From IMG/VR virus record IMGVR_UViG_3300045988_163776, positions 128,001 to 155,695 of that record: DNA of 27,695 nt. One strand, 5' to 3'. Shown piece after piece: positions 21,694 to 22,752 of this stretch (position 1 is the first letter of the stretch; every line of letters starts with the position of its first letter). The notes beneath the pieces are model-generated. The model searched no databases. It had not been told where the DNA came from and was given only the letters and a program-made list of their open reading frames with translations. The position numbers and the translations under genes were made by a program. Source of the DNA: a virus.

Positions 21694-22225
21694 ATGGCTA
21701 AAATAAAGAAAATAAAAGATAATAATGGCACTACTATTTACCCTCTTACCTCGGTTGATGTAGTCTTTGACAAAAATGGTAAGACTTTGACCGGGGGGGG
21801 TGCTAAGTTTTATAGCTGGTCCTGATGATGACTTAAAGAATAATCCAACTATTAATTCTATCATAGCTTAGAACCTCACTACTAGTCTCTCCCCAAGAGG
21901 AGGTAGAGATTATGTAAGTGTTTTGTGCTTAGATAATAAATATATTCGTACTTGGTCGTTTTATAAGAAATCAGCAGCCTCGCCTGCGGAAAAAGGAGAC
22001 AAATATAATGCAAGACTCTCTGGAAGTGGAATTCTTGTATTTTGCATGACGGAATAGTCACCAAATCATATTGATGACGCCTATTTTTATCCATTTGAAT
22101 TATTAGGTACTAATTAGTATTTTAAATAGATAAACGGAATATCTTTTGATACTGAGAGCATTAATGGATTTGTAGACCCAATGGGAGATTGGGATGCTTA
22201 TTGGGTATTATTCAAAAAAGTATAA
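21694..22225 (+). CDS. tail-fibre-like paralog A; frame interrupted at a G8 tract (21783-21790), full length only with G7 or a +1 shift
   Basis: N-terminus MAKIKKIKDNNGTTIYPLTSVDVVFDKNGKTLTGGG. The zero frame hits TGA 12 codons after the G8. The +1 frame continues about 140 codons (TAG as sense) to TAA 22223-22225. Confidence 0.4.
21783..21790 (+). repeat. G8 homopolymer inside paralog A
   Basis: ccgggggggg tgct. The only G runs of 7 or more that I noticed in this AT-rich window are this one and 22410-22417. Confidence 0.9.
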
Positions 22226-22307
22226 TTAAAGAGAATAAATTAATATAATATTTTATTCACTTAATTTATTCTCTTTAATATAAAAAAATAAAAGGAGAGA
22301 ATAAATT

Positions 22308-22752
22308 ATGGCACAAATTAAAAAATTAAAGCAAGGGGAGACAACGATTTTCCCAATGACAGATGCAAGTGCTGTACAATACGCAGGTAAAACTCTCTCG
22401 GATATGACCGGGGGGGGTCTATAGTACCCAACCCGTAAAAATTGGCACTTGGATTAATGGAAAGACAATATATAGAGAAATAAAAGAAATAGATTTTGCA
22501 TAGATAGATAAAACAGCGGACCATTTTTCATCAAATCTATCAGATTTTGGTATTTCTATAACAAAGACTGGAGGTTTACTTAATTTATATATTATAAGTT
22601 TTGCTTTTCCTTTAGATTCTGCAACTAATCAAGAAATTGGGTTTGTTTATACGCCAAATGAATTTTTAAAAGGTATAAAAGATGGGAATATAACAGAGTC
22701 ACTGTTTATTGAACCAATATATGCAATTATTACTTATGTTTCTTTAGACTAA
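22308..22752 (+). CDS. tail-fibre-like paralog B; frame interrupted at a G8 tract (22410-22417), full length only with G7 or a +1 shift
   Basis: aaaggagaga RBS. MAQIKKLKQGETTIFPMTDASAVQYAGKTLSDMTGGG. The zero frame stops at TAA 13 codons after the G8. The +1 frame continues about 110 codons to TAA 22750-22752. Confidence 0.4.
22410..22417 (+). repeat. G8 homopolymer inside paralog B
   Basis: atgaccg ggggggg tctatag. Same relative position and context (T-G-G-G) as in paralog A. Confidence 0.9.

Follow-up and report, generated by a model that had tools for sequence, protein, structure and literature searches.

Poly-G tracts of varying length at the anchor–head junction of two putative fibre-tip genes in a human-gut phage, and their probable role as contingency switches

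Runs of G or C act as contingency switches in surface-structure genes of Campylobacter, Haemophilus and Neisseria, and these bacterial genes retain their coding capacity under fast switching of the DNA. Phages have other ways to switch host range, among them invertible fibre segments (Gin of Mu, Cin of P1) and diversity-generating retroelements (Bordetella phage BPP-1). Here we describe two poly-G tracts in tandem paralogous genes, A and B, which are predicted to encode small tail-fibre-tip proteins and lie in a 27,695-base stretch of phage DNA (positions 128,001 to 155,695 of IMG/VR virus record IMGVR_UViG_3300045988_163776; the whole stretch is hereafter called the window), part of a 155.7-kb human-gut metagenome contig. 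The closest described case is that of the Campylobacter Fletchervirus phages, in which two of four receptor-binding proteins are reportedly phase-variable; poly-G tracts are also said to occur in many other phage genera. According to summaries in later papers, Fletchervirus tracts of 7–11 G in receptor-binding protein genes generate sub-populations that differ in the receptors they use (Sorensen et al. 2021, Cell Rep 35:109214, via bioRxiv 10.1101/2025.10.21.683753, PMC10579305 and PMC11959909). In T2, T4 and other phages, contingency loci consist of short homopolymers whose reversible frameshifts, caused by polymerase slippage, yield mixed progeny (Gomez, Barrick and Waters, bioRxiv 10.1101/2025.10.21.683753); in coliphage tail-fibre genes such repeats are under-represented (0.77x; same source).

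The locus described here shares with Fletchervirus a run of 7–12 G within fibre or receptor-binding protein coding sequence, the presence of the tract in only part of several such genes, with tract length setting the frame, and an AT-rich genome that otherwise avoids G runs. It differs in that it belongs to an uncultured phage of the human gut, about 155 kb in size and unrelated to Fletchervirus, in which TAG most likely encodes Gln, and in that the lysin of this phage carries an S-layer-homology (SLH) domain, so that its host is probably not Campylobacter. The tandem paralogs are also small (140–177 aa), the tract coincides exactly with the anchor/head junction, a place that also bounds cassette exchange, and the evidence is comparative and between samples, whereas that for Fletchervirus is experimental. 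With the T2/T4 loci (runs of at least 6, mostly in non-structural or accessory genes) it would share homopolymer slippage within phage genes and bet-hedging, but its tracts are longer, consist of G only and occur in two fibre-tip genes only. As in the bacterial contingency genes, the tract lies near the 5' part of the gene, ON and OFF states are separated by one-base steps, many alleles are OFF yet intact, and tract changes outpace those of the flanking DNA; here, however, the genome is viral and the switched product would be a virion protein. As with Gin, Cin and the BPP-1 system, one phage genome is predicted to yield virions with alternative receptor-binding ends, by a different mechanism: a repeat scan found no flanking inverted repeats able to invert the tip genes, and neither an invertase nor a reverse transcriptase was found among the window proteins scanned, a scan that covered part of the open reading frames (ORFs). 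The kind of switch is already known; what is new is the phage, the placement between anchor and head, and the census in natural populations.

The tracts and the three tip paralogs that they concern are laid out as follows (window coordinates).

21694–21792, + strand: N-terminal module of paralog A (MAKIKKIKDNNGTTIYPLTSVDVVFDKNGKTLT); 97–99% nucleotide identity among 18 relatives
21793–21800, + strand: poly-G tract A, G8, out of frame in the window, a Gly linker when in frame (read from the sequence)
21801–21825, + strand: frame-0 tail of the truncated (OFF) A product, ending with TGA 21823–21825 (from the ORF listing)
21800–22225, + strand: C-terminal domain of paralog A in the +1 frame, 141 codons with four TAG, ending with TAA 22223–22225
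22308–22409, + strand: N-terminal module of paralog B (MAQIKKLKQGETTIFPMTDASAVQYAGKTLSDMT); 94–100% identical in relatives
22410–22417, + strand: poly-G tract B, G8, out of frame in the window (read from the sequence)
22417–22751, + strand: C-terminal domain of paralog B in the +1 frame, 111 codons with one TAG, ending with TAA 22749–22751
22813–23280, + strand: paralog C, with the same N-terminal module and no G tract, intact, found in every relative

Both tracts are embedded in an identical 14-mer, TGACCGGGGGGGGT, and are read in the same codon phase (ACC GGG GGG GGT, codons 33–36 in A and 34–37 in B), the G8 proper occupying codons 34–36 and 35–37, respectively, about 100 nt into each gene. 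A first-pass annotation of the window, made from the sequence without database searches, had located tract B correctly and had placed tract A at 21783–21790, 10 bases short of its actual position. Its impression that no other G runs of 7 or more exist proved conservative, as the two G8 tracts are the only runs of G or C longer than five in the entire window, which has 31% G+C and carries every gene on the + strand. It had also judged two such tracts to be unlikely by chance, and this agrees with an expectation of 0.03–0.07 G runs of at least 8 per window under independent-base and first-order Markov models, and with dinucleotide-preserving shuffles, which produced two G8 matches in 3/100 cases and ACCGGGGGGGGT in 0/100. 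The tract is moreover made up of rare codons: GGG accounts for 9% of Gly codons and ACC for 6% of Thr codons, and none of the 22 other Gly-Gly pairs is coded GGGGGG. The poly-G feature is real and non-random.

In the window, both genes are interrupted shortly after the tract. The whole OFF ORF of A (21694–21825) encodes 43 aa and ends in a TGA 10 codons past the Thr, while frame 0 of B meets a TAG at 22422–22424 after 4 codons under the standard code or, with TAG as a sense codon, a TAA at 22455–22457 after 15 codons; the first-pass figure of 12–13 codons for both was inexact. Skipping one G opens 141 codons in A (21800–22225) and 111 in B (22417–22751), close to the approximately 140 and 110 given by that annotation, which had overlooked that these extended frames contain four and one in-frame TAG, respectively, and are open because TAG is recoded. 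The third frame is shut immediately after the tracts.

The position of the tracts at the junction between a conserved N-terminal and a divergent C-terminal part, in the same phase in A and B, coincides with a module boundary in relatives. Twelve N-terminal residues are invariant in A, B and C (M1, A2, I4, K6, K8, T14, I15, P17, T19, V24, G29 and L32), whereas the domain of A that follows the tract occurs as three cassette families with 98%, 74% and about 53% identity to that of the window; a near-invariant N-terminal module joined to a C-terminal domain in three cassettes marks the tract as the boundary. ORF analysis confirmed that paralog C, which lacks the tract, is intact: it encodes 150 aa up to a TAG at 23263–23265, or 155 aa up to a TGA if TAG is read as Gln. 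At 23263–23280, the C gene of the window also has a 1-nt insertion (GGG vs GG) and a TAG where nine relatives have GAA; as a consequence it ends SLQWDSI, vs SLEWTVMA in relatives.

The window is matched at 100% over 16.7 kb by an ENA scaffold (ERZ28573263 scaffold_68, 155,711 bp, human-gut metagenome). Unbroken homologues of the tip proteins came, through a large protein collection, from Logan and ENA assemblies of human-gut samples. Those of A type (P0001–P0023) have 140–177 aa with TGGV or TGGGV at the junction, and those of B type (P0024 and P0025) have 148 aa with TGGGV. The gene order of the relatives is that of the window: genes for 124-aa, 231-aa and 810-aa proteins, the collagen-like fibre gene, the tip paralogs, a C1-peptidase/SLH gene and a radical SAM gene. 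Among GenBank phages, a DNA search with positions 17000–24300 matched the collagen repeat only and a protein search with a 547-aa ORF gave no match; protein-pattern scans and a DNA pattern spanning both tracts retrieved no relatives from IMG/VR and JGI metagenomes. Two matches to the DNA pattern in GTDB genomes (L010 and L011) were rejected as chance matches in high-GC contigs, and the GTDB search gave no pointer to the host.

The comparison of tract lengths among homologous phages, which the first-pass annotation had proposed, revealed extensive variation. After removal of repeat assemblies of one contig, tract A was represented by 19 independent assemblies (G7 in two, G8 in six, G9 in six, G10 in four, one of these being ACG+G10, and G12 in one), six of them in frame, and tract B by nine (G8 in two, G9 in three, G10 in three and G11 in one), three of them in frame. 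The lengths thus range over G7–G12 in A and G8–G11 in B, and the OFF alleles fall in both wrong frames (G8/G11 vs G9/G12). The in-frame lengths correspond to unbroken proteins with TGGV or TGGGV at the junction (P0001–P0005 and P0024–P0025); P0001, for example, is an unbroken 177-aa homologue of A, 95% identical, whose locus carries G10. In the nine loci that have all three paralogs, the states of A and B were OFF/OFF in five, OFF/ON in three and ON/OFF in one: the two tracts vary independently. Their lengths are equal in only two of these loci, so that the G8/G8 of the window is a coincidence and not a rule, and gene conversion holding both tracts at one length was rejected, given unequal lengths in the other seven. 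ON/ON was seen in 0/9 of the three-paralog loci, an outcome to be expected by chance with a probability of ~35% by our own estimate, and we accordingly do not claim mutual exclusion of A and B.

Tract length differs even between loci that are otherwise almost identical. Of the 20 locus pairs whose 400 flanking bases show no more than 4 mismatches, 12 have tracts of unequal length, including L002 and L012 (no flank mismatch, G10 vs G8) and L001 and L019 (one flank mismatch, G10 vs G8); near-identical flanks with unequal tracts imply that the tract changes much faster than point substitution proceeds. The related loci contain no further G or C run of at least 6 anywhere. The tract itself is kept in B and beside all three A cassettes despite a strong codon bias against GGG and ACC. 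At the B site, L014 has ATC TAG GAA GGG TTC vs ACC GGG GGG GGG GTC, and in this and other small tract-less homologues (P0026/L014, P0027 and P0030) the junction is read straight through. The number of tip genes differs between relatives, A being present with one of three unrelated or diverged C-terminal cassettes. Roughly half of the relatives have no paralog B (L001–L004, L006, L020, L023, L024, L027 and L028); the loci carrying it are the window, L005, L007–L009, L012, L019, L021 and L025.

The OFF alleles are intact beyond the tract. The ORF of the C-terminal domain is full-length in 13/13 OFF alleles of A and 6/6 of B, with no second frameshift or stop; in two OFF alleles only the stop codon is mutated, which yields a short extension. 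Ratios of nonsynonymous to synonymous substitution rates (dN/dS; pooled, Nei-Gojobori) were 0.33 for B and 0.59 for the commonest A cassette, and 0.26 and 0.54, respectively, among OFF-OFF pairs. For the window-type A cassette, 18 differences are too small a basis for a dN/dS verdict.

The genes lie immediately downstream of a fibre gene, and two potential hairpins flank paralog B.

20938–21540, + strand: collagen-like tail-fibre protein, 200 aa, three in-frame TAG (Pfam Collagen, E=5e-10)
22225–22279, + strand: inverted repeat with 26-nt arms between A and B (repeat I1), a possible transcript hairpin
22752–22780, + strand: terminator-like hairpin 3' of B (repeat I5)

The collagen-like protein matched many PHROG tail-fibre families (best E=1e-19), and its gene directly precedes the three tip paralogs in all relatives, in the same order. 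A profile of the B-type protein found 145 distant relatives, and in several longer ones (P0046, P0052) the matched region is the C-terminal domain that follows the Pfam domains Collar and Phage_fiber_rpt; hhalign pairs AGKTLSEMTGGGVYSTQPVKIGTWINGETIYRE with QGKVLNDKIEEGGIYSTNEIKIGTWIDGKPIYRK at a probability of 96%. Judged by these profile alignments, the C-terminal domain of B shares homology with the distal domain of tail-collar fibre proteins, and the Gly-rich linker that precedes this fibre head domain would therefore be what the G tract encodes. Pfam and PHROGs scans gave no match for A, B or C, a PDB sequence-profile search returned nothing credible for the tip paralogs, and AlphaFold models were too poor for use (predicted local distance difference test scores of 47 for A, modelled on P0001, and 38 for B, modelled on P0024). 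A and C are regarded as putative fibre-tip proteins from context and shared architecture only, that is, the common module and the place after the collagen-like gene. The fibre label of the first-pass annotation is hence borne out for B by the homology of its C-terminal domain, and for A and C it stands at the level of this context. Two A-runs just 5' of the ribosome-binding sites of B (22283–22289) and of the lysin gene (23290–23296) vary from A7 to A9 across relatives; this could add a further level of variable expression or be neutral intergenic slippage.

Taken together, we consider it probable that A and B are poly-G contingency switches in fibre-tip genes that operate by slipped-strand phase variation. 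This was one of the explanations put forward in the first-pass annotation, and it is supported by the G7–G12 spread, by the full-length proteins from in-frame alleles and by the OFF alleles that carry no other lesion. A and B would be small tail-fibre-tip (receptor-binding) proteins composed of a conserved N-terminal anchor and an exchangeable C-terminal head, with the linker between them coded by the G run (ACC GGG GGG GGG G..). The polymerase would slip on this run during replication of the phage DNA, so that G residues are gained or lost at a rate far above that of ordinary mutation, and slippage of this kind would account for the observed length variation and generate it within single populations too. 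Tracts of 7, 10 or 13 G would give the full protein (ON), and other lengths would make translation stop a few codons past the anchor module (OFF). With A and B switching separately and reversibly, one lineage could produce virions bearing the constant tip C alone, or C plus A and/or B; such mixed tips would amount to bet-hedging over host surface variants, in which case tip switching would change host range.

Several observations weigh against this interpretation. Tract lengths were compared between assembled samples, and the sole hint of a mixture within a population is the contig end of L018. This contig (Logan ERR636392_6156, assembled from the source run) ends at window position 21800, exactly past the eighth G of tract A, where two other assemblies read on; the end may reflect a de Bruijn graph branch caused by coexisting G8 and longer variants, and error k-mers could also produce it. 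Receptor binding by the tip proteins is argued from the homology of B and from context, and neither A nor C was assigned to a family or fold. In-frame alleles are also few in a sample that is blind to tract state, namely the loci with the exact lysin of the window (10 of 33 contigs), where A is in frame in 2/10 and B in 0/5. By our own binomial estimate this does not differ significantly from an expected 1/3 (P about 0.08), and expression is perhaps not strictly dependent on the DNA frame.

The alternative in which the shift occurs at the level of expression deserves attention for this reason, although we regard it as unlikely. The ribosome would slip on GGG GGG GG, or the RNA polymerase would stutter, such that a fixed fraction of product is full-length, DNA length is of minor importance and the anchor-only peptide is a second product. 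This would suit consensus alleles that are mostly out of frame (13/19 in A, 6/9 in B) with C-terminal domains intact and constrained, and a G run made of the rare GGG codon (9% of Gly codons) permits re-pairing in any frame. A +1 shift on GGG GGG GGU would in fact restore both window proteins, as in the prfB/RF2 frameshift, and the G run resembles the Shine-Dalgarno-like stimulator of that system; unlike prfB, however, the shift site has neither a stop nor a hungry codon and the frame relation is not conserved among relatives, so that the need for a shift is itself not conserved, and the next frame-0 stop lies 10 codons on in A and 4 or 15 in B. With some alleles ON and the OFF ones spread over both wrong frames, a single +1 or −1 shift cannot fit all; the programmed +1 frameshifting suggested by the first-pass annotation conflicts with how common the in-frame G7/G10 and other-frame G9/G12 alleles are. 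The shift site lacks a stop or a conserved rare codon, and the sequence 3' of the tract differs between cassettes, which leaves no common stimulator. Fast DNA switching can by itself explain the kept coding capacity, as it does in bacterial contingency genes, and most documented transcriptional insertions lie in runs of A or T (PMC5574713). In the phage tRNA-Gly(UCC), the anticodon loop has the normal 7 nt. A quadruplet-decoding tRNA was likewise rejected as a +1 rescuer: the loop GAUU of the tRNA at 11037–11109 would read AAUC, not GGGG. This tRNA has an 8-nt anticodon loop (UUGAUUAA) and may be a quadruplet decoder or a degenerate tRNA. Leaky slippage at the level of expression, as a route added to phase variation, would help explain why consensus alleles are mostly out of frame. 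Since the tract lies just past a complete anchoring module, out-of-frame alleles would yield an anchor-only peptide, and in a more elaborate version that we deem rather improbable this peptide of ~40–50 residues would cap docking sites on the fibre, leaky slippage on G8–G12 would supply some full-length protein, and tract length would grade the ratio of capped, A, B and C tips, coupled to read-through of TAG late in infection.

It is very improbable that the variation is a sequencing or assembly artefact in which every tract is really G7 or G10 and its length is miscounted by short-read assemblers. Several platforms are prone to error on long G runs, one contig ends at the tract and all the data are metagenome assemblies, but in comparison with 12 relatives the two tracts are the only frame-breaking indels in genes, all others being multiples of 3 or compensated. 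G8 at A recurs in three assemblies (two from ENA and one from Logan, probably of one study and possibly of one sample) and G8 at B in both assemblies that reach it, while the calls as a whole draw on numerous runs and on two or more assembly pipelines. Moreover, the lengths span 7 to 12, differing by up to 5 between samples, with in-frame lengths 3 apart, which is not the pattern of a plus-or-minus-one miscount; both this and the lack of other frame-breaking indels speak against the systematic homopolymer error that the first-pass annotation had also listed. Least credible of all is that A and B are redundant copies decaying as pseudogenes, with the G run as the break site. In favour of decay, about half of the relatives lack B, and A and B are both OFF in 5/9 three-paralog loci. 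Against it, not one of the 19 OFF alleles carries a further inactivating change, dN/dS stays under 1, and the site affected is identical in the two genes and in every cassette. ON alleles are moreover found on nearly the same backgrounds as OFF alleles, and the tract is conserved against codon bias. Slipped-strand phase variation thus remains the reading that we favour.

The extended frames depend on the reassignment of TAG, for which the window offers several indications, including a suppressor tRNA.

16887–16974, + strand: tRNA with anticodon CUA, an amber suppressor (ARAGORN; Rfam tRNA model, 57.7 bits; fold predicted)

We counted 35 in-frame TAG codons. CAG or CAA is the codon most frequently exchanged with TAG in relatives (9/19 site-types), in-frame TAG codons break the Gly-X-Y repeats of the collagen-like protein, and TAG occupies the oxyanion-hole Gln position of the papain-like C1 peptidase. 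Both recoding features of code 15, late-gene TAG at the Gln positions of homologues and a tRNA(CUA), are therefore present, and TAG most likely encodes Gln in this phage. Other gut phages are likewise TAG-recoded (bioRxiv 10.1101/2021.08.26.457843; PMC9523058). Since the full-length frames of A and B and the neighbouring late genes contain TAG, the tRNA(CUA) would be needed to read them. It is the only such tRNA in the window and, with 88 nt and a long variable arm, has a shape of Leu/Ser/Tyr type, which is at odds with the Gln assignment drawn from codon exchanges and conserved positions; either the 155-kb genome encodes a second suppressor outside the window or this atypical tRNA(CUA) is charged with Gln. 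It belongs to a tRNA array at 7300–17000 with 16 (ARAGORN) to 19 (Rfam) genes, between which lie small ORFs and genes resembling those of homing endonucleases. A 320-aa ORF in this region (15039–16001), with repeated Cys-rich CxCxCG motifs, contains 10 in-frame TAG, so that the use of TAG extends beyond structural and lysis genes.

Other genes around the tips add to the picture of the virion and its host. Directly 5' of the collagen-like gene, positions 18449–20881 encode an 810-aa protein with nine in-frame TAG, of the same length in all relatives; Pfam and PHROG scans gave no match for it, and it is probably a large tail or baseplate component. The gene at 23312–24241, with five in-frame TAG, encodes a papain-like C1 peptidase with an SLH domain, a putative endolysin, and the identical protein occurs on 33 contigs. 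The SLH domain points to a host whose wall polymers bind such domains, probably of Gram-positive type. Just after the lysin gene, a 35-aa ORF (24415–24522) overlaps the 5' end of a radical SAM/4Fe-4S gene (24509–25759) and shows a 12-nt in-frame indel in relatives; the two may encode a precursor peptide and its maturase.

Phase-variable receptor-binding proteins of phages have been described as 'an exceptional case' in a 2025 review (PMC11959909), and their experimental demonstration has so far come only from Campylobacter phages. The locus reported here suggests the same device in an unrelated, uncultured and TAG-recoded gut phage, with evidence drawn from the natural phage populations of many people. 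Fibre genes that look frameshifted in phage genomes from metagenomes should accordingly not be dismissed as errors or pseudogenes, and a comparison of homopolymer lengths among public assemblies can reveal switches of this kind. The host range of gut phages is perhaps a property of the population rather than a fixed property of the genome. With two switches, three tips and many samples for which reads already exist, the locus provides a concrete test case.

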